Assembly (NCBI GenBank): GCA_934096715.1
Contig: CAKOMQ010000002.1
Location: forward strand, 24,132-88,131
Source of the DNA: an uncultured Bacilli bacterium
GTDB lineage: Bacteria > Bacillota_I > Bacilli_A > RF39 > UBA660
DNA length: 64,000 nucleotides
Direction: 5' to 3'
Shown in pieces: positions 1 through 60,267 of the stretch (the first letter of the stretch is position 1; every line of letters begins with the position of its first letter). The position numbers were made by a program, and so were the translations under genes. The notes beneath the pieces are model-generated. The model worked only from the letters and a program-made list of their open reading frames with translations. It ran no database searches and had not been told where the DNA came from.

Positions 1-399
1 ATCTGAGTCTGAATTATCTGTAATTTCATTGGTTACTGTAGCTGTTACCTTATAATTATAAGTACAATCTAGTGCTTCATCTCCTTCTGGTAAACTTGCT
101 GTTGCTAATGTGTAATTTGGATTAGTAGTTAGTGCTAGTCCACTCTCGTTTTCATTAGCATAATAAGTCTTTCCTGCATTTGCTTGACTCATTAAATTTG
201 CATCTAAATTTAGATATAACTTAGATGTTTTTGTTTGCATTGTTGGATTTCCTAAGTTGTTTGCTTTACCTGTTACCTTAGCCCCTGTCTTATCACTAGT
301 TGCATTTATACTAAAGTATGCATATGTTCCACCAATTAATAGTAATAATGCAAAAGTGAATGCTACAACTATAAGTTGTTTTTTGTTCATGTTTTTCAT
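1..399 (-). CDS. Secreted or membrane-anchored protein, 5' part only (gene runs off the window). The N-terminal signal anchor MKNMNKKQLIVVAFTFALLLLIGGTYAYFS is paralogous to the N-terminus of the 761-aa protein in its in-frame (ON) form.
   Basis: Minus-strand ATG at 397-399 preceded by RBS AAAGGATAGG. Open frame to the window edge. Lys-rich n-region plus hydrophobic core. Confidence 0.6.
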   Translation of the reverse strand, partial: MKNMNKKQLIVVAFTFALLLLIGGTYAYFSINATSDKTGAKVTGKANNLGNPTMQTKTSKLYLNLDANLMSQANAGKTYYANENESGLALTTNPNYTLATASLPEGDEALDCTYNYKVTATVTNEITDNSDSD

Positions 400-478
400 A
401 ATAACCTATCCTTTTCTAAATAAAAAAGAGAAGTATTTTACTTCCCATAAACTTACATTCAGACTCATTTTTTCAACT

Positions 479-488
479 CCCCCCCCCC
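479..488 (-). repeat. Homopolymeric tract (C10 on + strand, G10 on the gene strand) about 80 nt upstream of the start of the 1..399 gene. It sits inside a ~40-bp block shared with position 35745.
   Basis: 10 consecutive C in a ~25% GC genome. Flanks (CTTCAGAATTGAGAAAAACCTACTG10) nearly identical to the 35745 locus. Confidence 0.85.
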
Positions 489-575
489 AGTAGGTTTTTC
501 TCAATTCTGAAGGGGAATTTTATAACTTATCAGTATAAACTTTTGGGTCATAAAATTCATGTTTTTTGTTGATTC

Positions 576-616
576 GCGAATTAAAATGTACGTTATAGTT
601 GCGAATTAAAATGTAC
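576..616. promoter_or_regulatory. 16-bp direct repeat GCGAATTAAAATGTAC, two copies (576-591 and 601-616, period 25 bp), upstream of the G-tract of the 1..399 gene.
   Basis: Exact 16/16 match read directly. GC-containing motif in AT-rich intergenic DNA. Confidence 0.5.
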
Positions 617-724
617 AAATTATATTTACATAATCAACAATTTCATCTCTTTTATTATCAAGATAATCATATCATTTTTTTAGTATATTGACAATACCAA
701 AAGTATTATTTTTAAAAAAGTTAA

Positions 725-8064: not shown

Positions 8065-8189
8065 CTATCTAATTTTATCAAATTTTGTGTCTTTTGTCAT
8101 TAATAGTAAATAATTTATTTATTTTTAAAAAAATGGTTTATATTTCGGATATTTTATGATAAAATATAAACTATAAGGAGTTGATATAC

Positions 8190-9233
8190 ATGGATGGAAT
8201 TGGAAAGAATTTAAAAAGAATACGTCTTCTTAAAAATCTATCTTTAAAAGAAGCCGGTAATTTATTAAATATGAGTCCTACCGCTATTCAAAAGTACGAA
8301 AAGGGAGAAATTATACCCGACTCAAAAAAAACAATTGAATTTGCTAATGCTTATAAAGTAGACATAATAGACATTTTAAAAATATACAGCGCACCAAAAA
8401 TGAGTTTTAGTTCATTTAGAAAAAGAAAAAGATTAAGTGGTCAAAAATTAGAATTATTAGAAAGTCTAATTGAAAATGAAGTAAGTAAATATTTGGAAGT
8501 AATAGAATTAAACAACATTAATTATCACAAAGTATGTTTAAAAAAATATAATTGCAATTCATTATTAGATAGTGAAAATGCTGCTTTAGAATTTCGTAAA
8601 TACATTAATATTTCTCCTAAGCAACCTATATCTGATTTAATAAGCATTTTGGAAAATCTAGGAATATTAATTATTCAAATTAAAAATATAGACAATAAAT
8701 TTAACGACTTTGATGGATTAAGTGAAATAGTAAATAAAATACCCGTAATCGTTCTTTTAGATGATATCAAAGATGGCGCCAGACAAAGATTTACAATTGC
8801 TCATGAACTTGGACATTTAATTTTAAATATAGAAGATAACTCTTTAAATGAAGAAAAATTATGCGACCGATTTGCAAGTGCTCTTCTTATGCCAAAAGAC
8901 GCTGTTATAAATGAATTTGGAAATAATCGTAAGAACATTAATTTCTTTGAATTAATAGCGTTCAAAAAAGAATATAAAGTGAGTATTGCCGCTATTAACT
9001 ATAGACTTAAAGACTTAAATATCATATCTTCTTATTTATATAAAAATTTAAGTATTCTAATAAACAAGAAAATTGGTAAAACTGATCCAGATCCAATAAG
9101 TCCTGAAAAATCATATCAATTTAAAAAAATAATATACAAACTAGAAGCAGATGAAATAATATCAATAAATAAAGCTTGCGAATTAATGGGGGTCACATCT
9201 AATGAATACAGAGAAGAAAATTATAATAACTGA
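8190..9233 (+). CDS. XRE-family HTH domain fused to an ImmA/IrrE-type (COG2856-like) HExxH zinc metallopeptidase domain
   Basis: N-terminal HTH (LKNLSLKEAGNLLNMSPTAIQKYEKG) and C-terminal HEXXH (IAHELGHLILN). ATG 8190 with RBS AAGGAG 9 nt upstream (the ORF track used an upstream TTG). Confidence 0.75.
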   Translation: MDGIGKNLKRIRLLKNLSLKEAGNLLNMSPTAIQKYEKGEIIPDSKKTIEFANAYKVDIIDILKIYSAPKMSFSSFRKRKRLSGQKLELLESLIENEVSKYLEVIELNNINYHKVCLKKYNCNSLLDSENAALEFRKYINISPKQPISDLISILENLGILIIQIKNIDNKFNDFDGLSEIVNKIPVIVLLDDIKDGARQRFTIAHELGHLILNIEDNSLNEEKLCDRFASALLMPKDAVINEFGNNRKNINFFELIAFKKEYKVSIAAINYRLKDLNIISSYLYKNLSILINKKIGKTDPDPISPEKSYQFKKIIYKLEADEIISINKACELMGVTSNEYREENYNN

Positions 9234-9705
9234 TACCAATATTATAACTGATTTATATATTGCAGGTGTCTTAGAAGAATTTATTCTTTTAGATAATATT
9301 TACATTAGTGATATAGTAAAAACTAATGAAATAAACAACAAAACTTGTGATTTAAAATTAATAAGCAAATTCAAAACAGTAGAAGCAAATTCTATGGAAC
9401 TTTTGGAAGCAAGTTATTTATCTATCGTAGAAAAGAAATTATCTATATTTGATTTACTAAATTTTATTATATGTAGAGACAATAATTACATATTAGCAAC
9501 AGGAGACAATCGGTTAAAAGAATACTCAGAAAGTCATAATATAGAAGTAATTAGAACTTTAAAGATTATTAAAGATATGTATAATTCAAAAAATATCTCT
9601 AATAAAAAATCTATTGATGCTTGTAATAAATTAAAGGAATCAAGCAAAACAAGAATACCTATAAAAGAAATAGACAATTTGATTAATTATTTAAAAAAAT
9701 ATTAG
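9202..9705 (+). CDS. PIN-like nuclease domain protein (DUF4411-like), putative toxin or effector partner of the upstream HTH-peptidase
   Basis: N-terminal hhhDTNhhh motif (IIITDTNIITD) and downstream T.D motif (ILATGDNR). Start overlaps the end of the upstream gene by 32 nt. Confidence 0.6.
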   Translation: MNTEKKIIITDTNIITDLYIAGVLEEFILLDNIYISDIVKTNEINNKTCDLKLISKFKTVEANSMELLEASYLSIVEKKLSIFDLLNFIICRDNNYILATGDNRLKEYSESHNIEVIRTLKIIKDMYNSKNISNKKSIDACNKLKESSKTRIPIKEIDNLINYLKKY

Positions 9706-12305: not shown

Positions 12306-14234
12306 TTACTTATTTTCAAAGTAAAAGTTTGATACTTCTTGAACAATTGGCCTAGTTATATACACTTTACTATACTCAAAGTCTTTTTTTACATAGATAT
12401 TTGGTATTATAACTATAATACTAAATTCAGGATTATCAATAGGAGCCAACCCTACAAAGTTAATAGATGTAGTAGCTGTATCCATGATACCATCATCATT
12501 TGTATCTATAAAAGTTTCACTAGTTCCAGTTTTACCCCCAGGATTATATTTACTACTTATATAACTTCTTGCTGTACCACTAGTAGTAGCCAAGTTCATG
12601 GCGCTTTTTAATCTATCACTATACTTATACTCTATGCTAACATGATCAATTACATTATATTTATTTTCAAGTATCACTTTATCTTTATTAACAATTTTTT
12701 TCATAAGCATAGGTTTTCTTCTCTCTCCATCACTTCCAAGTGTATTTACATAAGTAATTAAATTAATTGGTGTATAAGTATCATACTGACCAATAGAAAG
12801 ATTTAAAAGTAAATCTGAAGCATAATTATTCCCTATAATACCAGGTTTCTCATTAGGTAAATCAATACCTGTTTTAACTCCTAATCCATATTCCTTAAAA
12901 ACATTACGATACTTATCAAAATCATCTTTAGTAGTTTTCAATTTCATATTATATTTATAAGTATTTCCACTTACCTTTATAGCAGTCATAAATTGATAAT
13001 AATTACTACTCTTACTTATTGCACTCAAATCATTTATTCTACCTAGACTTTTATAACTACATTTAATTGGAATATGATCTAGTTTAATACATCCATCAGT
13101 CATCTTTGTATCAATATCAACTACACCATATTTATATCCAACACTCATACTAGCCATTTTTACTACACTTCCAACTGTATAAGACTTAGTTAATAAATTA
13201 GTATTCGCATTTACAAATTCTTCGTTATCAAGTACTTGTCCACTCATTGCTAGTATCTCTCCAGTTTTTGGATTACTTATAACACTATAACCTTCTTTTA
13301 AATAATTAGTATATTTATATTTTTTAGCTTTTAAAATATTTTCTTTAATAGATTCTTCTAATTTCTTCTGTAAATCAATATCTATTGATAAGTATAAATC
13401 ACTTCCACTACTACCTTCTTTAACTAAAGTTAATGTATTATCACTATTAACCTTATATATATCTTTTTCTCCTTTTAAGTATTCTTCATACTCTTTCTCT
13501 AAATAACTTATACCTACTAAATCACTTCTATTATAAGAGTTATCTAAATAATCATCTATATCTTCTTTAGGTATACTACCAACACTACCAAATATATCTC
13601 TTAAAGTATTACCAGAATTATATACTCTTTCCCATTTGAGTCCCCCGAAAATCCCCAAAATATTTTCTTCTAGTATGGTTGCATAATCAGTATCACTTAA
13701 ATTACTAACAATTTCTTTTGGTTCATAACTATATCCTTTATTCATTAAAAAGTATATACTACTAGCAAGTTTATCTTTATCACTATAATCATCAATTTCT
13801 TTCATAGGTACTCTAGAATACTTAAGTTTTTTTATTTCATCACTTGTTATTTTTCTTTTATCATATTTATCCCATTCTTCTTTAGTAATTAAATCATCTC
13901 CATTATTATGATTAATTAACCAAAACTTTTTAAAACTATCTTCATTTATTTCAACATTTATTATATTAGCAAGCTTATACGCTATATCTATTTCATCTTT
14001 AGTACTTATTTTAGATATCTTACTATAATAGATAGTTTTCTTTCCAATATTATCTACAAGCACTACACCATTTCGATCTAATATTCTTCCCCTAGGTGCT
14101 GAAGTTCCATTTACATATATTTCTGTCTTTTTAACTAATTCATTAAAATAATAATCATGATATTTAGTATTAATGACTACTATACGTACTCCGAATAATA
14201 AATAAATTGTTATTATAAATATTTTTTTCAACAT
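12306..14234 (-). CDS. Class B penicillin-binding protein (PBP2/FtsI-type transpeptidase)
   Basis: N-terminal TM, SxxK (SVVK) and KTG (KTGTS) motifs. Confidence 0.85.
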   Translation of the reverse strand: MLKKIFIITIYLLFGVRIVVINTKYHDYYFNELVKKTEIYVNGTSAPRGRILDRNGVVLVDNIGKKTIYYSKISKISTKDEIDIAYKLANIINVEINEDSFKKFWLINHNNGDDLITKEEWDKYDKRKITSDEIKKLKYSRVPMKEIDDYSDKDKLASSIYFLMNKGYSYEPKEIVSNLSDTDYATILEENILGIFGGLKWERVYNSGNTLRDIFGSVGSIPKEDIDDYLDNSYNRSDLVGISYLEKEYEEYLKGEKDIYKVNSDNTLTLVKEGSSGSDLYLSIDIDLQKKLEESIKENILKAKKYKYTNYLKEGYSVISNPKTGEILAMSGQVLDNEEFVNANTNLLTKSYTVGSVVKMASMSVGYKYGVVDIDTKMTDGCIKLDHIPIKCSYKSLGRINDLSAISKSSNYYQFMTAIKVSGNTYKYNMKLKTTKDDFDKYRNVFKEYGLGVKTGIDLPNEKPGIIGNNYASDLLLNLSIGQYDTYTPINLITYVNTLGSDGERRKPMLMKKIVNKDKVILENKYNVIDHVSIEYKYSDRLKSAMNLATTSGTARSYISSKYNPGGKTGTSETFIDTNDDGIMDTATTSINFVGLAPIDNPEFSIIVIIPNIYVKKDFEYSKVYITRPIVQEVSNFYFENK

Positions 14235-31761: not shown

Positions 31762-32904
31762 TTATTTATTTCCTTCTTGATTTATTTGTGATAATGTTTT
31801 AATTTCAATTTTATATTTAGTTAATTTAGAAGCAAGTCTTATATTACTTCCTTTCTTACCTATAGCTAGACTTAAATTATCATCATCTACTATAGCTAAA
31901 GCTTCTTTCTTTTCTTCATCTAATATATTAACAATAACATTCTTAGCTGGAGCAAGTGCATTAGCTATATATTCTTTAGGATCTTCACTATATAAAATTA
32001 AATCTACTTTTTCTCCATTTAATTCTTTAAGAATACCTGCTATTCTTGAACCCCTTTCTCCAATACAAGATCCAATTGCATCTATTCTTTCATTCATACT
32101 ACCAACAGCCACTTTACTTCTAATACCTGCTTCACGAGCAACTCCATAAAGTACTATATCTCCTGATTGTAATTCTGGTATAAATGATTCAAATAATCTT
32201 TTAACAAATCCATAATGTTTTCTACTAAGTAAGATTACAGGTCCTTTATTATTAGTATCTACTTTAGTAACATATACTCTTATATTAGAACCCATTACTA
32301 TTTTTTCTCCAGGTATTATTTCGCTCTTAGGAAGTATTCCCCTAGTTCTACCTAAATCTATATAATAGTTTCTTTGATCTTCCATTGCTACTAAACCTAG
32401 CATTAATTCATATTCTTTATCACTAAATTCTTCAATAATGCTATTCTTTTCTGCTTCTCTTATTTTTTGAGTAACAACTTGTTTTGCAGTACCAGCCGCT
32501 ACACGACCAAAATCTTTTGGAGTAACTTCTTTTTCAATTGTATCTCCTACTTCACATAGTGGATCAATCTTACGAGCATCTTCTAAAAGTATTTGCGCAT
32601 CAAGATTAATTTCTGGTGCTACATCTACTTCATTACCTTCTTCATCTATAATAGTAGTTCCTTCATCAATTTCATCTACTACTACTAAATAAGAATATAC
32701 TTTGATTTCTCCTGTTTCACGATTAATATCCACTCTAACATTAGTTTTAGAATCAAAGTTCTTTTTATATGCAGTTTGCATAGCTAATTGCATTGCATCA
32801 AAAACAACATCTTCACTAATATTCTTTTCTTTAACTATATTATTAAGTGCTTTAATAAATGCTTTACTATCCATTTTATACATCCCTTTCTTTACTAATA
32901 ACAT
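31762..32904 (-). CDS. nusA: Transcription termination/antitermination factor NusA
   Basis: S1 and KH domains. Conserved position. Confidence 0.9.
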   Translation of the reverse strand: MLLVKKGMYKMDSKAFIKALNNIVKEKNISEDVVFDAMQLAMQTAYKKNFDSKTNVRVDINRETGEIKVYSYLVVVDEIDEGTTIIDEEGNEVDVAPEINLDAQILLEDARKIDPLCEVGDTIEKEVTPKDFGRVAAGTAKQVVTQKIREAEKNSIIEEFSDKEYELMLGLVAMEDQRNYYIDLGRTRGILPKSEIIPGEKIVMGSNIRVYVTKVDTNNKGPVILLSRKHYGFVKRLFESFIPELQSGDIVLYGVAREAGIRSKVAVGSMNERIDAIGSCIGERGSRIAGILKELNGEKVDLILYSEDPKEYIANALAPAKNVIVNILDEEKKEALAIVDDDNLSLAIGKKGSNIRLASKLTKYKIEIKTLSQINQEGNK

Positions 32905-33121
32905 CCATTATGTACGAATCATCACAAATATTATAATTATCAACTATTGGATTAATAATATTAGTCGCATCTACTATTTCATCTAGGTCAATACCACCTA
33001 CTTTATCAAGTACAATAGTTAAGAACTTATAGTTATTTTTATCTTCTATATAGATATCATCCACTATTAATTCTTTTTCCCCTAATATTTTAGATAATTC
33101 ACTTTTTAATTCATCAAGCAT
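32876..33121 (-). CDS. rimP: RimP-like ribosome maturation factor, N-terminal domain only (81 aa)
   Basis: DKVGGIDLDEIVDATNIINPIVD matches the RimP N-domain. Shorter than typical RimP. Confidence 0.55.
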   Translation of the reverse strand: MLDELKSELSKILGEKELIVDDIYIEDKNNYKFLTIVLDKVGGIDLDEIVDATNIINPIVDNYNICDDSYIMDVISKERDV

Positions 33122-33132
33122 ATAACCACTCC

Positions 33133-33166
33133 AAACTAATAATAAAAGTGGGATTTTCTGCCCACT
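33133..33166 (-). terminator. Rho-independent terminator for the 761-aa surface-protein gene
   Basis: Minus-strand hairpin AAGTGGGCAGAAAATCCCACTT followed by TTTTATTATT. Confidence 0.6.
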
Positions 33167-33310
33167 TAAATCTGTAACTTAATTATACCACACTTTTTCT
33201 TAATTACAAACAAAAAGTCCCATATTCATTATATGAGACTTATCTATATATAAAGACATCTACTACATAAGATAGATAGAAAGCAATAGCAGATGTTCTT
33301 TATACCAATA

Positions 33311-35596
33311 TTATTCTACCAAAATGTAGGGATTATCATAACTACCATTTCCAGATTTAACAATAACATCACTTGTTAAATAAAATACCGGACGAAAAGC
33401 AACATTGCTATTAGTGAAATCGACACTTTCTAAATTACCTGATGCATTAATTGCCCAAGAACTAAATCCACCAATATTATGATCAGCACCTAATACAATC
33501 ATAGTCCATTCTGTATTAATAATGTTTCCAGAATTTTTATAATCTGTATTAGAAGGTGATAACCAACTATTTACCAAAGAATTAGAATTAATTGGAGCTG
33601 TTAAGTCTGCTTCAGCAGAAAACACATAATCACTTGCATACATCAATCCTATTTTAGCTTGATATGTTTCATATGCAGTTGGAGAACATGGAATCGAGGC
33701 ACTAGCATTAGAATAACAATAATCAGAACCAATATTATTTTCAGTTAAATAAATACCAATCAAAGGAGATACGGTAAAATCGGGTCCACCACCCATGTTG
33801 CCATAAGTACTTACACTATTCCATGTCCAATTTTCTATTTTATTTAACCATATTGTATCTTGTAAATAACTAAATTTGGTGCTTGTAAGAAAATATTTTC
33901 CATTTAATCCTTGATAAATTTCACTATAATTAAACAAGGTATCTTCATCACTAGAATTGAATGAAATTGAACCTAACTGAGAAAATTTTATAAGTTTAAC
34001 ATGGTATGTTCCACTCGAATCAGGAAAAACTCCAATTACTCGATACAGATATTGCTGATAATTTGTCTTACATGTTGCTTGATCAGTTGTTCCGAAACAT
34101 ACAAAATTAGAAACCGAAGCATCTGCCCCAACAGCACGATACCCATCATTTATTCCCAATCCAGAGTTTTCTAACAAATTTAAATATTTACCGGAATTAA
34201 TTAAATAATCATTAAAATATTTTTCTGTCTCATATGAAATAGAAGAATGTATAATAAATCCAAGGTCATCAATAACATGTACATAATATAGACCATCCGA
34301 ATTCATAGTATAATTAATTGAATTAGATGTTATACTTTTCCATGAACATCCACTTATACTAAGTTTGTTATTAATACAATACTTTGTTAATGCTCCTTTT
34401 CCTTTTGTAAAATTAGCAGTTAAAACATTTTTATTTTTTGATAAAGATATTTTTAAAGACGACTCATCACTATTAGAACTATCAATTATTAAAAATGGAT
34501 TTTCTAAAGAACCATCTCCAATTCCACCAGCAACATTACTTTTTAAATAAAAGACAGGTCTAACACTTTCAGTATTAGTATAATAATTATATCCAATAGC
34601 ACCATCACTACGTACATCCCACGAATAATATTTGCTACTCCATAAATCATGATTTGCAATAGTCCATTCGTTATTACTATCATCATTATTGCCTAAATGA
34701 ATCCAACCTGTTTTTAATGTTATTTTACTAGGACCAGTTGACATAGACAATGCAGAAGAACCTAATGATAGTGCATAATCACTCATATATAGTAATCCAA
34801 TCTTTGCTACAGGATTTGTCCATGTTCCACCGCTACAATTAATTACAGTACTATTTATATTCATGCATAATTTATCAGAACCGTTTTTATGCATTTCATT
34901 CAAATACACGCCTTTTGGAGAACTACTAGTATATGAAGGATTACTTGATGTATTAATTCTAGTTTGAGTATTAACTGCACTCCATGTCCAATTCTCTATT
35001 TTATCACTCCACATAGCATTTTGCAGATAATTATAGGATGTATTTGTTAAAAAATAACTTCCATTTAAACCTTTATACAAATCACTATTTTCCCAGTTAG
35101 TTTTTGAATTTGTTGAATTCCACTCATATCTTCCTATAGATTTATATTTAATTAATTTAACATGGTTATCTCCATTTTCATCTGCAAACACTCCGATTAT
35201 TCTAAACATATATTTATCTTGTTTTGCTATACATTCCGATTTATCTGTTGTACCGAAACAAATAAAGTTATTTGGATTTGTCGATTCATCCACTGCACCA
35301 CTTCCAACATAACGATATCCATCGCCTACCAAATTACTTTGATACAATTCTCCCATGGTTATTAATTTATCACTAAGTAATTGCTCTTTATATTTATCAA
35401 AATATAAATAACACATACTTGTTTCTGATACTTTAACTGTAGCTTTCTTTTTATCTTGATCATATAAAAGAGAATCTTCTATTTGTTTACCATTTGAAGA
35501 CATACATCCTGATTTAGTTTGATTATAAAAATATTCATAACCAGGAAAAGTAGAATTAGTACTTTCTTGATAATTACCATTTGAATCTTCTATCAT
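33311..35596 (-). CDS. Large (761 aa as annotated) Asn/Ser/Thr-rich surface-protein body made of two homologous halves. It is currently separated from its signal-anchor coding segment (35667..35807) by a +1 frame offset at the G10 tract.
   Basis: Internal duplication (YRYVGSGAVDES..FICFGTTDKSEC..HVKLIKYKS..KIENWTWSAV versus YRAVGADASVSN..FVCFGTTDQATC..HVKLIKFSQ..KIENWTWNSV). Each half ends RPVFYL.S.V...G.GS..NP[FY]. ATG 35596 has no RBS and no signal peptide. Confidence 0.7.
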   Translation of the reverse strand: MIEDSNGNYQESTNSTFPGYEYFYNQTKSGCMSSNGKQIEDSLLYDQDKKKATVKVSETSMCYLYFDKYKEQLLSDKLITMGELYQSNLVGDGYRYVGSGAVDESTNPNNFICFGTTDKSECIAKQDKYMFRIIGVFADENGDNHVKLIKYKSIGRYEWNSTNSKTNWENSDLYKGLNGSYFLTNTSYNYLQNAMWSDKIENWTWSAVNTQTRINTSSNPSYTSSSPKGVYLNEMHKNGSDKLCMNINSTVINCSGGTWTNPVAKIGLLYMSDYALSLGSSALSMSTGPSKITLKTGWIHLGNNDDSNNEWTIANHDLWSSKYYSWDVRSDGAIGYNYYTNTESVRPVFYLKSNVAGGIGDGSLENPFLIIDSSNSDESSLKISLSKNKNVLTANFTKGKGALTKYCINNKLSISGCSWKSITSNSINYTMNSDGLYYVHVIDDLGFIIHSSISYETEKYFNDYLINSGKYLNLLENSGLGINDGYRAVGADASVSNFVCFGTTDQATCKTNYQQYLYRVIGVFPDSSGTYHVKLIKFSQLGSISFNSSDEDTLFNYSEIYQGLNGKYFLTSTKFSYLQDTIWLNKIENWTWNSVSTYGNMGGGPDFTVSPLIGIYLTENNIGSDYCYSNASASIPCSPTAYETYQAKIGLMYASDYVFSAEADLTAPINSNSLVNSWLSPSNTDYKNSGNIINTEWTMIVLGADHNIGGFSSWAINASGNLESVDFTNSNVAFRPVFYLTSDVIVKSGNGSYDNPYILVE

Positions 35597-35666
35597 AACA
35601 GCAAATAAATCACTACTAGATGTAGACGCACCAAAAATATATTTATCTAAATTTTTATTATTATAA

Positions 35667-35807
35667 GATATATAAGCACCAATTATTAATAATAATTCTA
35701 TTAAAGTAAGTGCAATAATTAAAGTTCTTTTGTGTTGTTTCTCGCCCCCCCCCCAGTAGGCTTTTTAGCTTCTGGAAGGTTGCTAATAAATTAGCATTTC
35801 TTTTCAT
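35667..35807 (-). CDS. 5' leader ORF (46 codons) of the surface-protein gene: MKRNANLLATFQKLKSLLGGG... With 10 G it terminates early. With 9 or 12 G it reads MKRNANLLATFQKLKSLLGGGEKQHKRTLIIALTLIELLLIIGAYISYNN... straight into the 761-aa frame.
   Basis: Manual translation of the minus strand. Upstream ATG (35807) to the ATG at 35596 is 211 nt, which is 1 mod 3. RBS-like GAAAGTGAG upstream. -35 TTGAAA, 17 nt, -10 TATCAT upstream. Confidence 0.65.
35745..35754 (-). repeat. Homopolymeric G10 tract (C10 on + strand) inside the 5' coding region of the surface-protein gene. Candidate slipped-strand phase-variation switch.
   Basis: 10 consecutive C/G in a ~25% GC genome. Reading-frame analysis as above. 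Flanks conserved with the 479-488 locus. Confidence 0.85.
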
Positions 35808-35848
35808 GATTTCGGGGTCTCACTTTCTATTTTTATCTAAAAAAATGA

Positions 35849-35866
35849 TACTACAAATGTGTAGTA
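35849..35866. promoter_or_regulatory. 7-bp inverted repeat TACTACA-N4-TGTAGTA in the spacer of the putative promoter (-35 TTGAAA, -10 TATCAT on the minus strand) of the surface-protein gene. Candidate operator.
   Basis: Read directly from sequence. Confidence 0.4.
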
Positions 35867-35869
35867 TTT

Positions 35870-36604
35870 TCAAGTAGATGTTGTTAACTTTTTTAAAAAA
35901 TCCTTGCTTTTTAAATATAACCCTGTATAGTCTTCATAATAACAAGATAAGAATCTATTAATTTGATCTACTAACTTAGAATCTATTTTTAATGTAGATA
36001 TACTTTTAATATCTACTAAATAATACATATTTAATAGTTTTATTATTCTTAAGTCTAATAATTCTTCTCCCCTATAACAATCTATACATACTAGACCACC
36101 ACGTTCTAAAGATAAAGTTACTATATTATTCTTTTTATTACATACATTACAACTTTCTAAGTTTAATCCAACTCCTAAATAATCTAAATATTTAACTTCT
36201 ATTATATTAGTAATTATTAAAGGATCTAAATTATCATCTATTTTAATTAAAGCATTAATTAAATCTTCATATATATTTATATCATTAGATTGTTTTAATA
36301 CTTGATAAGTAAGTTCTAATAAATAAGAAGCATAACTTATTTTTAATATATCATTCTTTATATTAACAAAAGGATTAATTATATCAACACTAGAAAGAAG
36401 AGAAAGTTTATTCTCTTTATAATAAATATTAAACATACCATATGTAAGTTTCATAGTAGATGCTCTTAACTTAGACTTCATACTTTTAGCACCCTTACAC
36501 ATAACTCCTATAACACCATGTTCTTTAGTTATTATATTTATTATCTTACTACTTTCTCCATATGGAGTTTCTTTTATTATTAATCCTTCTACTACTTCTA
36601 TCAT
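35870..36604 (-). CDS. recO: DNA repair protein RecO
   Basis: N-terminal OB-fold sequence MIEVVEGLIIKETPYGESSKII. Position after era. Confidence 0.8.
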   Translation of the reverse strand: MIEVVEGLIIKETPYGESSKIINIITKEHGVIGVMCKGAKSMKSKLRASTMKLTYGMFNIYYKENKLSLLSSVDIINPFVNIKNDILKISYASYLLELTYQVLKQSNDINIYEDLINALIKIDDNLDPLIITNIIEVKYLDYLGVGLNLESCNVCNKKNNIVTLSLERGGLVCIDCYRGEELLDLRIIKLLNMYYLVDIKSISTLKIDSKLVDQINRFLSCYYEDYTGLYLKSKDFLKKLTTST

Positions 36605-38443: not shown

Positions 38444-39056
38444 TAATCATCACTTCCCAATAACCCAAAAAATAAATTATCAATATAACAATAATAATTA
38501 TCCATATTATATTATAAAATAACGAACTTTTAAAGAAGTCAGGCAAATGTTTTTGCAATTTCTTAAACAATTTATATAAAATATATCCTAGAATTGTTCC
38601 TAAAACATTTAAAAATATATCATCAACATCAAAACTACGACCAATATTTAATTGAATAAATTCAACACTTGCACTAGTAACAATACTAGTTATAAGAATT
38701 GGCCAAATATTTTTAGACTTAATATAGTCACTTATTAAATAACCAAAAGGTATAAATATTAAGATATTACCAACAACATTCATCATAAACATCCTAGATC
38801 CAATATCATATCTTAATATTTCTGAAAATGGTACTAGATTCATTCCACCATTATGATTAATTTCTGTTGTAGTTAACAATTCAAATAATAACCATAAATA
38901 AATAATTGAAAATATTAACATACATTCTTTATATAAAACAAACTTTTCTTTATGATTTTGTAAATAAAAGAATCTTACTATACATATTGCAATTAAAAAT
39001 ACAAGTAACATAGGCCACGTATTATTAAGAACTCTCTCCAGTATCACTTTTATCAT
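38433..39056 (-). CDS. VanZ-like family membrane protein
   Basis: Multi-TM with VanZ-like NLVPF motif. Confidence 0.5.
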   Translation of the reverse strand: MIKVILERVLNNTWPMLLVFLIAICIVRFFYLQNHKEKFVLYKECMLIFSIIYLWLLFELLTTTEINHNGGMNLVPFSEILRYDIGSRMFMMNVVGNILIFIPFGYLISDYIKSKNIWPILITSIVTSASVEFIQLNIGRSFDVDDIFLNVLGTILGYILYKLFKKLQKHLPDFFKSSLFYNIIWIIIIVILIIYFLGYWEVMINAI

Positions 39057-40197
39057 TTATACTACCCTCTTCCACCGTTACAACTTTACCAATACTTTCT
39101 TTTGTAACAACAAAAACTTCTAATACCATTGTACTATCTTTTATAGTATTTTTCAAAACTTTTTTTTCAACTATAGATTCATCTTCTTTTAACTTTAATT
39201 TCATCTTCTCATTAACTAGTTTTAAACCTTCTTCTAAAGCTTCTTTTTCATTTAAAATCTTCTTCTTTAACTCTACTTCACTTTCTTTTACTAAATCAAT
39301 TTTAAAATCATTAAGTTCATAAATATTACTACTTTTTTCTTTATATTTCTTAAATCTACTTCTAAATATTTTATATTTATTATCATTAATAGTTACTCTT
39401 ATATTATATTTAGATTTTCCACTTTTTATATATTCTTTTCTTTCAAATGGTACACTTACATTTACTTTATACCAAACTTCTGCATAAACAGTTCCACTTG
39501 AGCACACCAAGTCTTTTACTTCTTCATTATTCTTAACAATACTACTAACTAATATATCTCCCCTGTATACATACTGATTTATTCTTGTAACTACTTCTCC
39601 TTTTTTAATATTAAAACTCACTATTTTTCCATCACTCTTAGCTACTATATTACATATATTCTTTTCACTTTTGCTTTCTTTCTTTACTTTTTTAGTAACT
39701 AATACAACCATATCAAAACCATCATACTTTATTTCTAACCATTCTAAAGTATTTTTGTTATTATTAAGTATCTTTTCAACAATCTTTTCTATTTCTTTAT
39801 GATTTTTCTTAAATCCAACTTTCCTAATACCAGTTTCATTTAAACTATTTAATATAGTATTCTTAATTTTTAAATCATTAGTCTTAACTACAATATTAAA
39901 ACTCATATTATTAACCACTATTAAAAGAATTATTGAAATAAACAAAGTAATAAAAAAAGATTTATTAGATTTAAATATATCTAAATACTTATAAATACCA
40001 GTATCTTTATATATAGATACTTTATAAGATATTAAATATTTCTTAAGTCTATTATAATTATTATAATCTATCTTTAAATATACATATTCTTTATCTTTCT
40101 TTAATTCTTCATAATAAATATCTGTATTATATAACTTATTTATTAATCTTAATTCATCTTGTGTATTTACCCTTACCCAAATATAATGTTTATTCAT
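39025..40197 (-). CDS. yqfD: Sporulation protein YqfD-like
   Basis: Size, N-terminal region, and position downstream of a yqfC-like gene. Confidence 0.6.
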   Translation of the reverse strand: MNKHYIWVRVNTQDELRLINKLYNTDIYYEELKKDKEYVYLKIDYNNYNRLKKYLISYKVSIYKDTGIYKYLDIFKSNKSFFITLFISIILLIVVNNMSFNIVVKTNDLKIKNTILNSLNETGIRKVGFKKNHKEIEKIVEKILNNNKNTLEWLEIKYDGFDMVVLVTKKVKKESKSEKNICNIVAKSDGKIVSFNIKKGEVVTRINQYVYRGDILVSSIVKNNEEVKDLVCSSGTVYAEVWYKVNVSVPFERKEYIKSGKSKYNIRVTINDNKYKIFRSRFKKYKEKSSNIYELNDFKIDLVKESEVELKKKILNEKEALEEGLKLVNEKMKLKLKEDESIVEKKVLKNTIKDSTMVLEVFVVTKESIGKVVTVEEGSINDKSDTGESS

Positions 40198-41756: not shown

Positions 41757-43808
41757 TCATATACTTATCACCTTATTAAATAGATCTTCTTGACTCTTAT
41801 GAGATATATAAATAATAGTCCTATCATGAAAACTATCTAATATATTTTTTATAATCTTTCTTTCTAAGTCATTATCAACTTCGCTTAAAGCTTCATCAAT
41901 AATTAATATATTAGATTTTTTTAATAATCCCCTAGCCAAAATAATCCTTTGCTTTTCTCCACCACTTAAGTTTTTCGTATTATTATCTACTAAAGAATGA
42001 AATCTCATACCTTTCTTACTAACAATACTCTCAAGTTCACATATTTTAGAAATTCTCAAAAATTCATCTTCACTTACATCTCTATCCATAATAATATTAT
42101 CTTTTATTGTACCCCTAATCAATTTTTCAGATTGATTAATATATAGAATACTATTTCTTATATCACTTAATTCATAATCTAGTAAATTATAATCTCCTAC
42201 TAATATTGTTCCTTTACTAGGAGTAATATTCCTATAAAGTAAATTACATATTGTACTCTTTCCAGTACCACTCTTACCTTTTAGAAATACTTTATCTTGC
42301 TTATTTATCTTAAAAGATAAATCTTTAAGTACATAGTTATAATCATCAAATGTATAAGAAACATCACTCAATGTAATATCTCCATCAATTAATTTATAAA
42401 TTCTTTTAATATCTTCTTCTTTAATAGTTAAGAATTCACTTATCTTAGATATAATAACTTTTATATAATTATACTCTGGTAATATATCTATAATATTTTT
42501 AATTGGACTAATAGTATAACTTACTAAGAAATTATATGTTATTAAATCAACCAAAGTAAACTCATTATAATAAATTAATATGAAACCTAAAGAATTAATT
42601 ATAAAGAAACCTACATCCAATATTAATTCTTTAAAGAAATTAACACCATTAAAGAAAGAATTAATCTTAAAAGTATCATATAAATAATTAGAAATACTAG
42701 CTTCCATTTTAGTTAAAACATTGTCACTAATATTTAAATTCTTAACACTATCAAATGAATCTATATTCTCAGTAACTACGGAATTAACCCAAGTGTTTAA
42801 ACTAATATTATTATTTATTTTATAGTAAATCTTCTTATTAAAGAGAATACCTAATAATATATATAATAATAAACATCCAATTAATATAAATGATAACTTA
42901 TAATTAATAACTATTAGTATTATTAAAGAAACTACTCCTAAAAATAAATCTAAGAAAAGATTTAAAGACACATTAGAAATAATATTCTTAATAGATTCTA
43001 AGTCATTAACTCTTGTCATAATCTCTGCTGTTGATCTACTTTTAATTATTTTTGAAGGAAGATAAAATATATGTCTTAAGAAGGTATTATAAAGATAACT
43101 ATCTATTCTTAAATCTAAATAATTCTTATAGTATTTCTTAGTATAATCTACTAATATCTTCATAATAGTAAATATTAAAAATACAATAATTATTTTAGTT
43201 AAACTAGTTATATTATCTAAATAATTAAGAGATATTTTAAAATAATAACTTAATAGAATTGTAAGAAGAGAAAATAGAATACTTAGTATTATTAACTTTA
43301 TAACAATATATTTCTCCTTTCCAATAATACTAGTAAATAAACTTCCCATCGATATTTTTTCTTCTTTAATTATATTTTTGTCTCGTGGGTGGACTTCAAT
43401 TAAAACATTCATAAATATCTTCGAAAATTCATCCTTATCCATTACTTTCTTACCTACTCCAGGATCCATTAAAACAACTTTCTTATCGTTAATAGAATAT
43501 ATAACAACAAAATGTAATATATTATTATTAAGTTTAACATGAGCAATTACAGGATAATTAATATTTTTAACATCTTCAAAATTTTCATATTTTTTTGAGC
43601 TAGCATCAAAACCATATTTTTGAAAACAATTAACAATATTAAACGCTGTTACTCCTTCTAGAGTAGTATTAGTATCTTCTCTTAACTTTTCAATACTAAC
43701 ATAACCACCATAGTATTTAATAATTGACTGCATACAAGCTACTCCGCAATCTTTTAAATCTTGTTGGAGCACAATAACTTTCTTTTGCATATTTTTTTCT
43801 CCCTTCAC
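41757..43808 (-). CDS. Bacteriocin-processing ABC transporter with N-terminal C39 peptidase domain (SunT/LagD/ComA type), then TMD and NBD
   Basis: C39 catalytic Cys (QQDLKDCGVACMQSI) and His (HFVVIYS). Walker A GKSGTGKST. ABC signature LSGGEKQRIILAR. Confidence 0.85.
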   Translation of the reverse strand: MKGEKNMQKKVIVLQQDLKDCGVACMQSIIKYYGGYVSIEKLREDTNTTLEGVTAFNIVNCFQKYGFDASSKKYENFEDVKNINYPVIAHVKLNNNILHFVVIYSINDKKVVLMDPGVGKKVMDKDEFSKIFMNVLIEVHPRDKNIIKEEKISMGSLFTSIIGKEKYIVIKLIILSILFSLLTILLSYYFKISLNYLDNITSLTKIIIVFLIFTIMKILVDYTKKYYKNYLDLRIDSYLYNTFLRHIFYLPSKIIKSRSTAEIMTRVNDLESIKNIISNVSLNLFLDLFLGVVSLIILIVINYKLSFILIGCLLLYILLGILFNKKIYYKINNNISLNTWVNSVVTENIDSFDSVKNLNISDNVLTKMEASISNYLYDTFKINSFFNGVNFFKELILDVGFFIINSLGFILIYYNEFTLVDLITYNFLVSYTISPIKNIIDILPEYNYIKVIISKISEFLTIKEEDIKRIYKLIDGDITLSDVSYTFDDYNYVLKDLSFKINKQDKVFLKGKSGTGKSTICNLLYRNITPSKGTILVGDYNLLDYELSDIRNSILYINQSEKLIRGTIKDNIIMDRDVSEDEFLRISKICELESIVSKKGMRFHSLVDNNTKNLSGGEKQRIILARGLLKKSNILIIDEALSEVDNDLERKIIKNILDSFHDRTIIYISHKSQEDLFNKVISI

Positions 43809-55955: not shown

Positions 55956-56645
55956 ATGAATAATAAGGGATTCACATTAGTAGAAATAATTGCCGTTATA
56001 GCAATACTTGGAATAATTATGAGCTTATCAATAAGCAGTTATGTAAATTATTCAGATAAATTAGAAGAAAAAAATAAAGAAAACAGTATCTCTATTATTA
56101 AAATGAAAGCCAAAGATTATTATAATTCCACTGGTAAAAATATATTCTTTGTTAAAGAGTTACTAACAAGTGAATATCTAAAACCTAATCAAGGAAATAA
56201 TTACTTAATTAATAAAGAAGACTACGTATGTCACATTGTATCAATTGAAACAAGTATTGATGAGAATAACAAAGTAAATGTTACCGCAATTGTTGATGAA
56301 ACAGATTATAGTTTAGAAAATAATGATGAACAAGGATATATTAATTGCGATGAATCTAAATTAGAAGAAAAATTCTCATTATCTATAAAAGAAAGCACTA
56401 TAACTGCTAACATACCAAAAAAATCTAGTGTAACAATTATGACAAACTTAGGAGATTATACTCACCAAGAAAATAACACCGATACAAATAAACAAATAAC
56501 TTTAAATATTAAGAATATAGAAAACATTCCAAGTACAGAAGATAATCACTTTTTAGTAGTAGCACAAGCTACCTTAGTTGATGAAAATAATAAAATAACA
56601 ACCAAAAAAATAAGTATAAAGGCTAAAGAATTAAAGGCAAATTAA
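55956..56645 (+). CDS. Type IV pilin/pseudopilin-like protein with class III (prepilin peptidase) signal
   Basis: N-terminus MNNKG|FTLVEIIAVIAILGII (G-F-T-L-x-E motif). Confidence 0.7.
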   Translation: MNNKGFTLVEIIAVIAILGIIMSLSISSYVNYSDKLEEKNKENSISIIKMKAKDYYNSTGKNIFFVKELLTSEYLKPNQGNNYLINKEDYVCHIVSIETSIDENNKVNVTAIVDETDYSLENNDEQGYINCDESKLEEKFSLSIKESTITANIPKKSSVTIMTNLGDYTHQENNTDTNKQITLNIKNIENIPSTEDNHFLVVAQATLVDENNKITTKKISIKAKELKAN

Positions 56646-58121: not shown

Positions 58122-58643
58122 TTATCCAAAGAATACATAAGTAATTGTAAATGCCATAATAATTCCAACTAAATCTGCAAATAATCCTACTGATAGAGAA
58201 TGCCCTATTTTAGATATTTTAACACTTCCAAAATAAAGTGCTAAAACATAAATCGTTGTATCAGTACATCCTTGTAATACACTAGCAAGTCTTCCTGCAT
58301 AACTATCAGGACCAACATTCTGAAAAATATCATTCATAATAGCTAATGATGCTGTACCAGAAATAGGCCTTAATAAAGCCATAGGAATTATATCTAAAGG
58401 TATATTTAATTTAACAAATAAAGGATTTAAAAATGATAATAAAAAGGTAAGTACATTACTATCTAAAAAGATGTTTATCGCAAATACCATCGCAATAACT
58501 GCAGGAAATATACTAAAAGTAGTCATTAATCCTTCTTTAGCACCTTCTAAAAAAGTATCATAAAGATTAACTTCTTTCTTAAATCCATAAAGAATTATAC
58601 CAAGAACAAATATAGGTATTATTACTAAAGATATTATATTCAT
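58122..58643 (-). CDS. spmB: Spore maturation protein B
   Basis: Membrane protein. Conserved dacB-spmA-spmB order. Confidence 0.75.
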   Translation of the reverse strand: MNIISLVIIPIFVLGIILYGFKKEVNLYDTFLEGAKEGLMTTFSIFPAVIAMVFAINIFLDSNVLTFLLSFLNPLFVKLNIPLDIIPMALLRPISGTASLAIMNDIFQNVGPDSYAGRLASVLQGCTDTTIYVLALYFGSVKISKIGHSLSVGLFADLVGIIMAFTITYVFFG

Positions 58644-59221
58644 AATTTTTTTCTCTTTCTAATAATATAATCAAGAGTTACACCAGCTATACATGAACAA
58701 GTTGTTGCAATAATTGCTGGAAGTATTATCTCCGAAGGATTCATTGAATTATAAGTAGTTCTAAGAGCTAATATAGTTGTTGGAATAATAGTAACACCAG
58801 CTGTATTTAAAACTAAAAAAGTAATCATTGGAGTCGACGCTGTATCTTTTTTATCATTAATCTTTTGAAGTTCATTAATTGCTTTTAACCCTGCTGGAGT
58901 TGCTGCGGAACCTAAACCCATCATATTAGCAGCTATATTACTAGCAATATAGCCAAGAGCTTTATTATCTTTAGGAACACTTGGAAATAATCTACTTAAA
59001 AGTGGTTTTAAAAGATGAGCAAACTTGTCTAATAACCCACTCTTTTCAGCAATTTTAAGAATACCTGTCCATAAAACAATAATAGGTAGAAGTTCTAATA
59101 TTAAGTCAAGTGCATCATTTGCATTCGTTAAGATACTATTATTTATAACTTCAATATTACCGGATAGCAGCGAATAAATTATACCTGATGCAATTAAAAA
59201 TAACCAAATATAACTAACCAT
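58640..59221 (-). CDS. spmA: Spore maturation protein A
   Basis: MVSYIWLFLIASGIIYSLLSGNIE... resembles SpmA. Translationally coupled to spmB. Confidence 0.75.
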   Translation of the reverse strand: MVSYIWLFLIASGIIYSLLSGNIEVINNSILTNANDALDLILELLPIIVLWTGILKIAEKSGLLDKFAHLLKPLLSRLFPSVPKDNKALGYIASNIAANMMGLGSAATPAGLKAINELQKINDKKDTASTPMITFLVLNTAGVTIIPTTILALRTTYNSMNPSEIILPAIIATTCSCIAGVTLDYIIRKRKKL

Positions 59222-60267
59222 TATTTTCTCCCTTTAAATTTATCTACATATTTTTTTATATATATAGGTTCTTTATGATATAAATTATCTTTTAAATATA
59301 TATTTGCATATCCAACAATATCATCATTATTAAAATGTTTATATTTAATAAGTTCTATTTTAATTAAAACATCTTTTCTTTCACTTTTTTTAAGAGTCAT
59401 ATTATAATCATTTTTAATATATAATTTATATTTCTTATAATACTTTTCTTTTTTTATTTTAAATCTATCTTTATCTAATATATTAAAACTTTTATATTCA
59501 CTAAATACTTTTTTATAAAGAGTAATATGATCACTAAAATCATCTGGATCATTAAGAGTAACTACCACTACATTAATATTATTCTTACTACCAGTAGTTA
59601 CTAAAGTTCTTCTTGCTTTCTTTGTAAATCCAGTTTTACCACCAGTTACAAAATCATATTTTAATAGTTTATTTTTATTATGCCAAACATAAGTCATCAT
59701 ACTGGTTTCACATTTATATTTTTTTGTTTTAAATATACTTCTAAAAGTAGGATTTTTAATAGCATAACTCGTAAGTAAAGCCATATCATAACTACTTGAT
59801 TTATTACCGTTACCAAATTTATCTTCAAGACCATGTGGATTAATAAATACCGTGTTGGTCATTTTCAAGTTATTAGCATATTCATTCATCATATATACAA
59901 AGTTATCTACTCCACCACCAACATACTCGGCAATCATTAATGCTGCATCATTTCCACTTCTTAACATAAGTCCATATAGTAAATCTTTTAATTTTATTTC
60001 TTCTCCTACTTTAATATATATTCCACTACCAAAAGATTCTTTTACTTTATCAGTTACTTTAACTGTATCTTCTATATTAGCATTTTCTATCGCTACAATA
60101 GCGGTCATTATCTTAGTAATACTTGCAATTAATCTAGAATCATTTTGATTATATCCACTAAGTACTCTTAAATTATCAGTATCCATTACAACCATACTAC
60201 TTGCACTTATAGAGAATACATTTAATGGAAGTATTAATAAACTTACTACAAATAATATCTTTTTCAT
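59221..60267 (-). CDS. dacB: D-alanyl-D-alanine carboxypeptidase (sporulation-type DacB)
   Basis: SxxK (SITK), SGN (RSGNDA), KTG (KTGFT) motifs. Signal peptide. Confidence 0.85.
   Translation of the reverse strand: MKKILFVVSLLILPLNVFSISASSMVVMDTDNLRVLSGYNQNDSRLIASITKIMTAIVAIENANIEDTVKVTDKVKESFGSGIYIKVGEEIKLKDLLYGLMLRSGNDAALMIAEYVGGGVDNFVYMMNEYANNLKMTNTVFINPHGLEDKFGNGNKSSSYDMALLTSYAIKNPTFRSIFKTKKYKCETSMMTYVWHNKNKLLKYDFVTGGKTGFTKKARRTLVTTGSKNNINVVVVTLNDPDDFSDHITLYKKVFSEYKSFNILDKDRFKIKKEKYYKKYKLYIKNDYNMTLKKSERKDVLIKIELIKYKHFNNDDIVGYANIYLKDNLYHKEPIYIKKYVDKFKGRK

Follow-up and report, generated by a model that had tools for sequence, protein, structure and literature searches.

Homopolymer contingency genes, scaffolds of the C-type lectin (C-lectin) or DUF6273 type and multigene families of surface proteins are each already known. 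In Neisseria porA and opc a poly-G/C tract lies in the promoter spacer, Campylobacter has poly-G genes, and Mycoplasma hominis Vaa and M. hyorhinis Vlp carry poly-A in the coding region or promoter. Canonical Ca2+-dependent C-type lectins have conserved disulfides and a long loop with the EPN/QPD and WND motifs that bind Ca2+ and sugar. DUF6273 has the C-lectin fold (PMC10743442), and in phage DUF6273 proteins the region mutated by retroelements lies at the C-terminus of the domain (PMC11792537). The immunoglobulin A (IgA) peptidase (IgAse) of Thomasclavelia ramosa has an N-terminal domain (NTD) that is annotated as DUF6273 (PMC12402451). This NTD spans residues 31-321, forms an irregular alpha/beta structure around a C-type-lectin-like core, is twice the size of a typical C-type-lectin-like domain, is without the long loop and the disulfides of canonical C-type lectins, has the C-terminal domain of Legionella Lcl (Lcl-CTD) as its closest structure and is dispensable for IgA cleavage (PMC12237041). 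Here, we analysed a predicted surface-protein gene on the minus strand of a 64,000-nucleotide (nt) stretch of DNA from an uncultured Bacilli bacterium (contig CAKOMQ010000002.1; hereafter the window), whose open reading frame (ORF) at 33311..35596 had been noticed from the sequence. We propose, at a probability of roughly 60%, that this gene belongs to a multigene family whose members encode phase-variable surface proteins with hypervariable C-type-lectin-like binding domains.

Results

A poly-G tract near the start of the gene sets its reading frame

All positions are those of the window, and residues of the ORF are counted from the ATG at 35596 unless the relative P0001 is named. The 761-amino-acid (aa) ORF of the original prediction, window 33311..35596 on the minus strand, was found exactly as claimed and is open throughout. 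It is, however, the 5'-truncated, out-of-frame remnant of an 832-codon gene, and ATG 35596 is not the biological start. The main frame stays open 5' of this first ATG, where it encodes ...EKQHKRTLIIALTLIELLLIIGAYISYNNKNLDKYIFGASTSSSDLFAV-M. A further ATG at 35807, preceded by GAAAGTGAG, which resembles a ribosome-binding site (RBS), opens MKRNANLLATFQKLKSLLGGG one base out of register with the main ORF. The best database relative, P0001 (98% identical, 832 aa), is an exact fusion of both frames. The elements at this 5' end are as follows.

35845..35873, minus strand: candidate sigma-70 promoter, TTGAAA-17 nt-TATCAT, with 10/12 matches in a consensus scan; the same block stands upstream of paralogues elsewhere in the genome
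35755..35807, minus strand: true start, ATG 35807, with the leader MKRNANLLATFQKLKSL and the first two bases of the next Leu codon (17 2/3 codons); the 98%-identical P0001 starts here and reads through
35745-35754, minus strand: G10 homopolymer tract, 19 codons 3' of ATG 35807, which breaks the frame

As sequenced, with ten guanines, ATG 35807 yields a 48-aa product that stops at 35661. From the G10 tract to ORF codon 1 the main frame offers no ATG, GTG or TTG, and the transmembrane (TM) segment encoded in between therefore cannot be made in this state. The promoter candidate overlaps an inverted repeat, ATACTAC..GTAGTAT, just past the recO stop.

The flanked tract, AAAGCCTACT-Gn-CGAGAAACAACA, was sought in every fetched sequence and recovered with the same flanks in seven. 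Its length was 6 in L084, 8 in L083, 9 in L001 and L002, and 10 in the window, L085 and L086. Only 6 and 9, the multiples of three, are in frame, and these are exactly the copies whose gene calls include the leader. L001 and L002, the contigs of P0001, share the gene order recO-X-rimP-nusA with the window and differ from it by two single-nucleotide polymorphisms in 320 nt around the start and by G9 in place of G10. Many database entries begin instead at an internal MIEDSNG; the three that were checked (L083, L085, L086) all carry out-of-frame tracts, and we read such entries as out-of-frame copies shortened by the gene caller. Gene callers systematically cut out-of-frame copies at an internal Met, and the signal anchor is missing from many database entries. 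Runs of at least eight G occur at two sites of the window, which has 25% GC, against 0.04 expected from shuffled sequences, in agreement with the phase-variable start that had been suspected.

A rescue by ribosomal frameshifting was considered and rejected, as slipping by -1 on G10 would lead into the wrong frame; a +1 shift or the loss of one G in the mRNA would be needed. Transcriptional slippage may give leaky expression.

Poly-G tracts recur at the 5' ends of family genes

Across 729 kb of family loci (28% GC) there were 15 runs of at least eight G/C, and every one of them reads as G on the strand that codes for the family gene. Among these 15 is a G16 run at a contig end (L003 7513-7528), which is probably an artefact of two-colour-chemistry sequencing, not a biological tract, and was not used as evidence. 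In distant members from goat, rabbit and Hadza metagenome-assembled genomes (MAGs), the tract (G8 or G9) lies in the spacer of a near-consensus promoter, TTGAC[AT]-15/16 nt-TATAAT or TATACT, at six of seven loci (L005 5537, L006 5536, L018 544, L020 5517, L039 5176 and L016 3437; L007 is the exception). This is the same arrangement as the spacer-located tract of Neisseria porA and opc. The G9 tract at L078 5366-5374 makes up the codons for GGG in a SipW-type signal motif, LILAI-GGG-.TYAYFTL; it is out of frame, and G7 or G10 would restore the frame.

Single-domain paralogues, the copy at the left end of the window included, carry CCTACT-G10 inside the 5' leader. The left-end copy (398-700, minus strand) has its G10 at 479-488 with the same left flank, AAAAACCTACT, as the main tract; its ATG lies at ~400 and opens MKNMNKKQLIVVAFTFALLLLIGGTYAYFS, a SipW-type signal, and the gene then runs off the window. 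Its leader is ordered promoter (TTGTCA-17-TATGAT with an upstream TG, 694..666), tract, terminator-like hairpin (446..428) with a T run, and RBS. The upstream ORF of this copy is broken by a TGA before the tract. In the single-domain paralogues of L087 and L088, which come from other assemblies (1170-1510 in both), an upstream ORF of ~50 codons, MNFMTRNFMPVSYKILLQNAKKPTGGGVEKMSLMWEYREVKNFSFLFRKG and then a stop, passes through CCTACT-G10 and a terminator-like hairpin and ends ~5 nt before the main ATG. With such a layout, tract length could control the single-domain paralogues via translation-dependent anti-termination or coupling.

From its several placements, the tract was recruited by more than one route. 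As the placements are independent, they speak for its retention by selection as a putative switch.

The ORF is an old tandem duplication rich in Asn, Ser, Thr, Tyr and Trp

A BLASTP comparison of residues 1-400 with 401-761 aligned ORF residues 71-372 with 458-761 at 38% identity (318 columns, E=6e-60). The two homologous halves of the original prediction therefore stand as a duplication, but the repeated unit is ~300 aa and not ~350 aa long, and a spacer resembling PKD or immunoglobulin (Ig) domains separates the copies. A 70-aa N-terminal module and the 85-aa linker are present once. The DNA of the two halves is ~66% identical over 295 nt (blastn), and the duplication is therefore old. The terminal motif reported for each half is indeed there twice, both copies ending RPVFYL(x8-9)G.GS..NP[FY][LI], and P279, V280, F281, Y282, L283, G292, G294 and P299 of domain 2 are conserved at 90% or more in a family alignment of 61 sequences. 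The compositional bias noted earlier was also borne out: Asn, Ser, Thr, Tyr and Trp together make up 40.3% of the protein versus 24.9% in the 18 other window proteins, with Trp alone seven-fold enriched (2.2% versus 0.3%).

In the full-length protein, these copies are placed in the following order, as judged from an AlphaFold2 model of P0001 and sequence comparison.

35663..35725, minus strand: TM helix or signal anchor TLIIALTLIELLLIIGAYISY with a conserved mid-membrane Glu, in the main frame 5' of the first ATG (modelled helix, P0001 22-49)
35396..35644, minus strand: small N-terminal beta domain, P0001 55-137 (modelled strands, pLDDT ~74-86; C101 and C132 invariant)
34481..35386, minus strand: predicted lectin-like (divergent DUF6273) domain 1, ORF 71-372, ending RPVFYLKSNVAGGIGDGSLENPFLI (BLASTP; P0001 ~140-442, secondary structure as in domain 2)
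34226..34480, minus strand: linker, a predicted beta-sandwich of PKD/FN3/PPC-like type, ORF 373-457 (modelled strands, P0001 452-525)
33314..34225, minus strand: predicted lectin-like (divergent DUF6273) domain 2, ORF 458-761, ending RPVFYLTSDVIVKSGNGSYDNPYILVE (AlphaFold2 and Foldseek; P0001 ~530-832)

The full-length model reached a mean predicted local distance difference test score (pLDDT) of 84.5 and a predicted TM-score (pTM) of 0.50, and the low pTM fits independent domains on a string. Its second-tier Foldseek matches were FN3, PKD and Ig domains over ~85 columns, for which the aligned query module was not reported. Weak Pfam PPC matches were found in four relatives, and the one with a position given (P0004 438-496) falls in the linker.

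The TM segment has a Kyte-Doolittle maximum of 2.46 over 19 residues, and its mid-membrane Glu is conserved in the N-termini of orthologues. The protein ends ...GNGSYDNPYILVE without an LPXTG motif and, as its hydrophobic segment neither contains a Cys nor is directly followed by one, has no lipobox. No wall-binding repeat was found either; display would consequently depend on the N-terminal helix. P0001 gave no match to the SipW-dependent signal family (TIGR04088; signal peptides of the type ..GGT[YF]A[YA]F..). A SipW-type signal was scored at 17.9 bits against a cutoff of 19 in P0065, a relative of the single-domain type equivalent to the left-end paralogue, and P0100 carries the same domain behind a prepilin N-terminus (PF07963, E=8e-7; KG|MTLIELIV). 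Prepilin, SipW-type and TM-helix N-termini are all export contexts, and the product made in the open frame is predicted to be displayed outside the cell.

The repeated unit is predicted to adopt a C-type-lectin-like fold

An AlphaFold2 model of domain 2, built with an alignment of 61 sequences, had a pLDDT of 89.5 and a pTM of 0.89. Its sole significant Foldseek match in the PDB was 9qa6, the cryo-electron microscopy structure of T. ramosa IgA peptidase residues 32-876 (E=3.8e-7, probability 1.00, TMq 0.49, 324 columns), and the same entry was again the top match for the full-length P0001 model. The next matches of domain 2 were the Legionella Lcl C-terminal domain (E=0.37) and then, weakly, the lectin domains of CD23 and SP-A (E above 2). 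Foldseek gave no target coordinates; we infer that the matched part of 9qa6 is its NTD because of its size, the Lcl neighbour that both share and the evidence for DUF6273.

This evidence comes from two further sources. Among predicted viral structures (BFVD), 16 matches had E<=1e-3; six of them are named 'DUF6273 domain-containing protein' (E 2.5e-5 to 9.6e-4) and one 'Receptor Binding Protein'. DUF6273 (Pfam PF19789, gathering score 23.5 bits) was also the commonest Pfam match in the relatives, with 10 of 61 members and a best E of 3.2e-5, mostly below threshold; that of P0100 scored 13.4 bits and covered model positions 22-171 of 172. On the predicted structure, the repeated unit is a divergent branch of the DUF6273/C-lectin fold with an extra conserved N-terminal segment of ~85 aa. 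The domain family, which could not be recognised originally, can thus be placed through the model and the weak matches of relatives, and the lectin-type fold suspected of it, of a carbohydrate-binding or adhesin kind, is supported by the structure model.

Searches of NCBIfam and Pfam with the window ORF returned nothing at E<=1. A confident place in an enzyme family, which would have spoken against the original prediction, was not seen, and the one relative with a solved structure is an accessory domain without catalytic function. When PDB sequences were searched with a profile, a spurious 17-bit match to exodeoxyribonuclease 8 was all that came up.

Ectodomains vary behind a constant 5' cassette

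Across 79 instances of the domain, its N-terminal half shows strong conservation (GDGYRY..NP.NFICFG..C..YMYR[IV][IL]GVF..HVKLIK), and entropy is highest at domain residues 241-277, three strands directly before RPVFYL. As retroelements mutate the corresponding region of phage DUF6273 proteins, these variable strands are taken as the putative ligand-binding face.

Paralogues occupy sites between unrelated housekeeping genes.

glmM..ileS: L083
rseP..ffh: L084
gerQ..cdaA: L086
greA..: L003
recO..rimP: the window, L001, L002, L085

Those whose 5' region was inspected have the leader, tract, TM segment and N-terminal domain in common, and most also have the promoter block. Among the closest paralogues, identity in the N-terminal domain is 97-100%. 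When P0001 is excluded, the best identity to any database sequence falls from 100% in the N-terminal module to 63% in the linker, 61.5% in domain 1 and 44% in domain 2. The same pattern is seen at one and the same site: between L085 493-5250 and window 31762-36604, both recO-X-rimP-nusA, RecO is 98.4% and RimP and NusA are each 100% identical, whereas the surface protein is 52.7% identical overall and 97% in its first 70 residues. This comparison indicates that the ectodomain has probably been replaced behind a constant 5' cassette.

The fold also prompted us to consider the gene as the variable protein of a diversity-generating retroelement (DGR). This was rejected, as no template-repeat-like copy lies within the 64 kb: in a blastn search with the gene only its own two halves matched each other, at 66-73%, and no scan for a reverse transcriptase was made. 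A phage origin was likewise dismissed when tblastn of domain 1 against 50,697 phage records gave no match.

Relatives are numerous in gut Bacillota

An exhaustive profile search returned 6,010 representatives of 50%-identity clusters at E<=1e-3, 2,933 at E<=1e-10 and 675 at E<=1e-30. The shortest have ~200 aa and are mostly fragments, and the longest has 4,905 aa and 12 matched stretches; the giant relatives P0209 (4905 aa), P0203 (2446 aa), P0151 (2215 aa) and P0049 (1240 aa) have 4 to 12 domain copies or matched stretches. None of the 120 homologues listed was named by its source, and P0100 was the only one of them with a precomputed Pfam domain. At least 455 stretches of reference genomes encode relatives, the best match being 38% identical. 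The 79 loci listed come nearly all from gut MAGs of uncultured 'Bacilli bacterium', 'Tenericutes' or 'Mycoplasma sp.', with several loci per genome, for example 11 in one rabbit MAG.

Host and neighbouring genes

Read from their N-termini and not by hidden Markov models, several minus-strand genes of the window resemble those for a PBP2-type transpeptidase (12306-14234), a yqfD-like sporulation protein (39025-40197) and a dacB-spmA-spmB-like cluster (58122-60267). The organism appears to be walled and spore-forming despite its 25% GC and the 'Tenericutes/Mycoplasma' labels of related MAGs. A wall-less host of the Mollicute type was rejected for the window in view of PBP2, dacB-spmA-spmB and yqfD and of its clean reading in genetic code 11.

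Downstream of the surface-protein gene lie two further elements.

33215..33241, minus strand: hairpin resembling an intrinsic terminator, with a T run, ~70 nt 3' of the stop codon
33209..33182, minus strand: separate TG-extended candidate promoter for rimP, 3' of the terminator-like hairpin

Given the terminator-like hairpin, the gene is taken to be monocistronic. The RimP-like gene that follows (32876-33121, minus strand) encodes only 81 aa, the N-terminal domain, with a weak Pfam RimP_N match; as it has the same length in L001, L002 and L085, the short form is conserved and is not an artefact of the window.

Elsewhere in the window, a 683-aa protein (41757-43808, minus strand) starts with a motif like that of C39 peptidases, QQDLKDCGVACMQSI, typical of bacteriocin-exporting ABC transporters. 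Two plus-strand genes at 8181-9705 interrupt an otherwise minus-strand region with a local flip in GC skew; the first appears to encode a fusion of an XRE-type helix-turn-helix with an ImmA/IrrE-like HELGH metallopeptidase, and the second a 167-aa protein.

Discussion

The proposed switch would work as follows. Transcription would start from the gene's own promoter and translation from ATG 35807, and the ribosome would then reach the poly-G tract. With G9 or G6, the frame would be open and give the 832-aa protein (ON); with G8, or with G10 as in the window, translation would end after 48 residues (OFF). The tract would change between these states by slipped-strand mispairing, presumably at high frequency. 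The ON product would consist of a short cytoplasmic leader, the TM helix and, outside, the small beta domain, a lectin-fold domain, the PKD/Ig-like spacer and a second lectin-fold domain. Within each lectin-like domain, the N-terminal half would serve as the conserved scaffold and the strands preceding RPVFYL as the variable part. The sources of diversity would be a large set of paralogues that have one 5' cassette in common and the replacement of entire alleles, with no part played by a retroelement. Most likely, the protein would bind ligands of the host or its mucus, or the surfaces of other cells, in a switchable and variable manner and would help to evade host antibodies. As to the adhesin or host-interaction protein that was originally expected, the TM helix predicts display outside the cell once the frame is restored, whereas a host ligand, and with it a role in adhesion or immune evasion, is conjectural.

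Several points weigh against our proposal of a phase-variable family with lectin-like binding domains. Tract-length differences were seen between assemblies and not within one population, so that frequent and reversible switching is putative, and in any single assembly a homopolymer may be miscalled. The TM-score to 9qa6 is moderate, at 0.49 with a root-mean-square deviation of 7.3 Å, and goes with a match whose assignment to the NTD is our own. Neither the window protein nor either half has a Pfam family at E<=1, so that the placement of the domain rests on predicted structure and the weak matches of relatives. To our knowledge, no DUF6273 domain has a known ligand or function, the solved IgAse NTD included. 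The TM helix may be kept as an anchor or cleaved off. Finally, the host appears to have a peptidoglycan wall, and a protein of this length that is anchored in the membrane only may reach little beyond it.

Of the other explanations, the strongest is that the target is not the host but other microbes or phage, the protein, at the surface or secreted, acting in co-aggregation, as a lectin-like bacteriocin or as a receptor decoy. Among predicted structures, its nearest neighbours are DUF6273 proteins of phages and a 'Receptor Binding Protein', binders of bacterial surfaces, and the sequence specifies no host ligand. Yet none of the copies examined has phage or toxin-immunity genes beside it, each standing alone among housekeeping genes, the search of phage records with domain 1 came back empty, and structures that face the immune system are typically those whose single copies are switched on and off; we regard a microbial target as unlikely. 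That the frameshift is no switch at all, but a homopolymer error of sequencing or assembly or the fixed inactivation of a pseudogene, is an improbable reading. A single difference of G10 versus G9 does look like a miscall, and the many gene calls that begin at an internal Met would also fit decaying genes. Against both stand tract lengths of 6, 8, 9, 9, 10, 10 and 10 with identical flanks in independent assemblies, an ORF that is fully open for 761 codons past the tract in every OFF copy, and G tracts kept in three placements at the 5' ends of family genes on a background of 25-28% GC.

Two further readings concern what kind of protein is made. The gene could encode a modular type IV pilin or another fibre subunit that displays lectin-like domains: the TM segment holds LTLIELLL with the conserved Glu, the relative P0100 has a genuine prepilin motif, KG|MTLIELIV, single-domain paralogues carry a signal of SipW/TasA type, and a pilin-like gene with the textbook prepilin N-terminus MNNKGFTLVEIIAVIAILGII lies at 55956-56645 (plus strand, 229 aa), so that the organism does encode proteins like type IV pilins. 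P0001 itself, however, has no match to N_methyl (PF07963) or TIGR02532 at E<=1 in Pfam and NCBIfam. It has no Gly at -1, and its Glu lies 10-13 residues into the helix, after a charged region, instead of at +5. There is no pilin among the 50 best PDB matches listed for the full-length model, and a break of low confidence parts helix 22-49 from the beta domain that comes after it, unlike an alpha-1 helix packed on a beta sheet. With no N_methyl match, the wrong Glu spacing and no pilin-fold match, the pilin hypothesis was rejected for the window protein and looks very improbable. Hardly credible is an enzymatic role of the repeated domain, whether related to formylglycine-generating enzymes, which share the C-lectin fold, or as an accessory part of a protease. 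It is true that the sole PDB neighbour belongs to a metalloprotease, but the matched part of IgAse is the non-catalytic NTD, dispensable for activity. Moreover, no enzyme family appeared in Pfam or NCBIfam at E<=1, the sequence-profile search of the PDB gave nothing meaningful, and variation peaks where a conserved active site would be expected.

A more far-reaching version of our proposal, which we offer tentatively and rate somewhat short of even odds, is a system of antigenic or adhesive variation on the C-lectin (DUF6273) scaffold in an uncultured, spore-forming species of gut Bacillota. It would comprise dozens of paralogues with a portable 5' cassette, wholesale exchange of ectodomains among loci and among strains, and a per-copy poly-G switch in three positions (coding leader, promoter spacer, and an upstream ORF passing through a terminator hairpin). 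If true, this would be a contingency system in the style of Neisseria or Mycoplasma in a Gram-positive commensal lineage, where it has no described precedent. Our main proposal, if right, would give a fold, a topology and a regulatory logic to a completely unannotated family of ~6,000 clusters in gut Bacillota from humans, rabbits, goats and chickens, and a handle on host interaction in lineages not yet cultured. It would also link the C-lectin/DUF6273 scaffold, hitherto that of a retroelement-diversified phage receptor binder and of an orphan domain in an IgA protease, with homopolymer phase variation, the scaffold being diversified here by another genetic route. A literature search returned no report of this family or of poly-G phase variation in these lineages. 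New relative to the literature searched is the combination of a tandem DUF6273-like scaffold, walled spore-forming gut Bacillota, paralogy with allele replacement, and poly-G in several configurations.

Comparison with known systems

The modular pilins PilB and PilC of Streptococcus sanguinis also carry a binding module, lectin-like in PilC, on an N-terminal hydrophobic helix, and within the family P0100 does have a prepilin motif. They differ in that the window protein has neither class III signal features nor a pilin fold.

Closer in fold is the NTD of IgAse (ThomasA, 9QA6). Both it and the window domain have ~300 residues, an enlarged and irregular C-type-lectin-like core and the Lcl C-terminal domain as next neighbour, and both come from cell-surface proteins of low-GC gut Bacillota. 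Unlike in fold, the two have no detectable similarity in sequence. In IgAse, the NTD, which has a structural Zn site (D78, H90, C126), is a single accessory module on a sortase-anchored metalloprotease, whereas in the window protein two copies form the core of a TM-anchored ectodomain without a catalytic domain.

The phage receptor-binding proteins of DUF6273/C-lectin type that are DGR targets (tentaclins, the targets in Faecalibacterium prophages and, as the paradigm, Mtd of Bordetella phage) share the fold class and the gut habitat. In both cases, variability is concentrated near the domain's C-terminal end, directly ahead of a terminal segment that is conserved. In contrast to these phage proteins, the gene described here has no template repeat within 64 kb and no phage context or match, and would vary by paralogues, allele replacement and switching in place of mutagenic retrohoming.

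In its regulation, the locus can be set beside homopolymer contingency genes. In these too, the tract lies near the 5' end or in the promoter spacer of genes for surface proteins, a length change of 1-2 nt decides expression, and a multigene family combines a conserved 5' region with variable ectodomains. What sets the window gene apart is its uncultured, apparently walled and spore-forming Bacillota host of 25% GC and a predicted lectin-like fold where the known systems have lipoproteins, porins or Opa-type proteins, as well as a family in which the tract takes three or more positions (coding leader, promoter spacer, upstream ORF).

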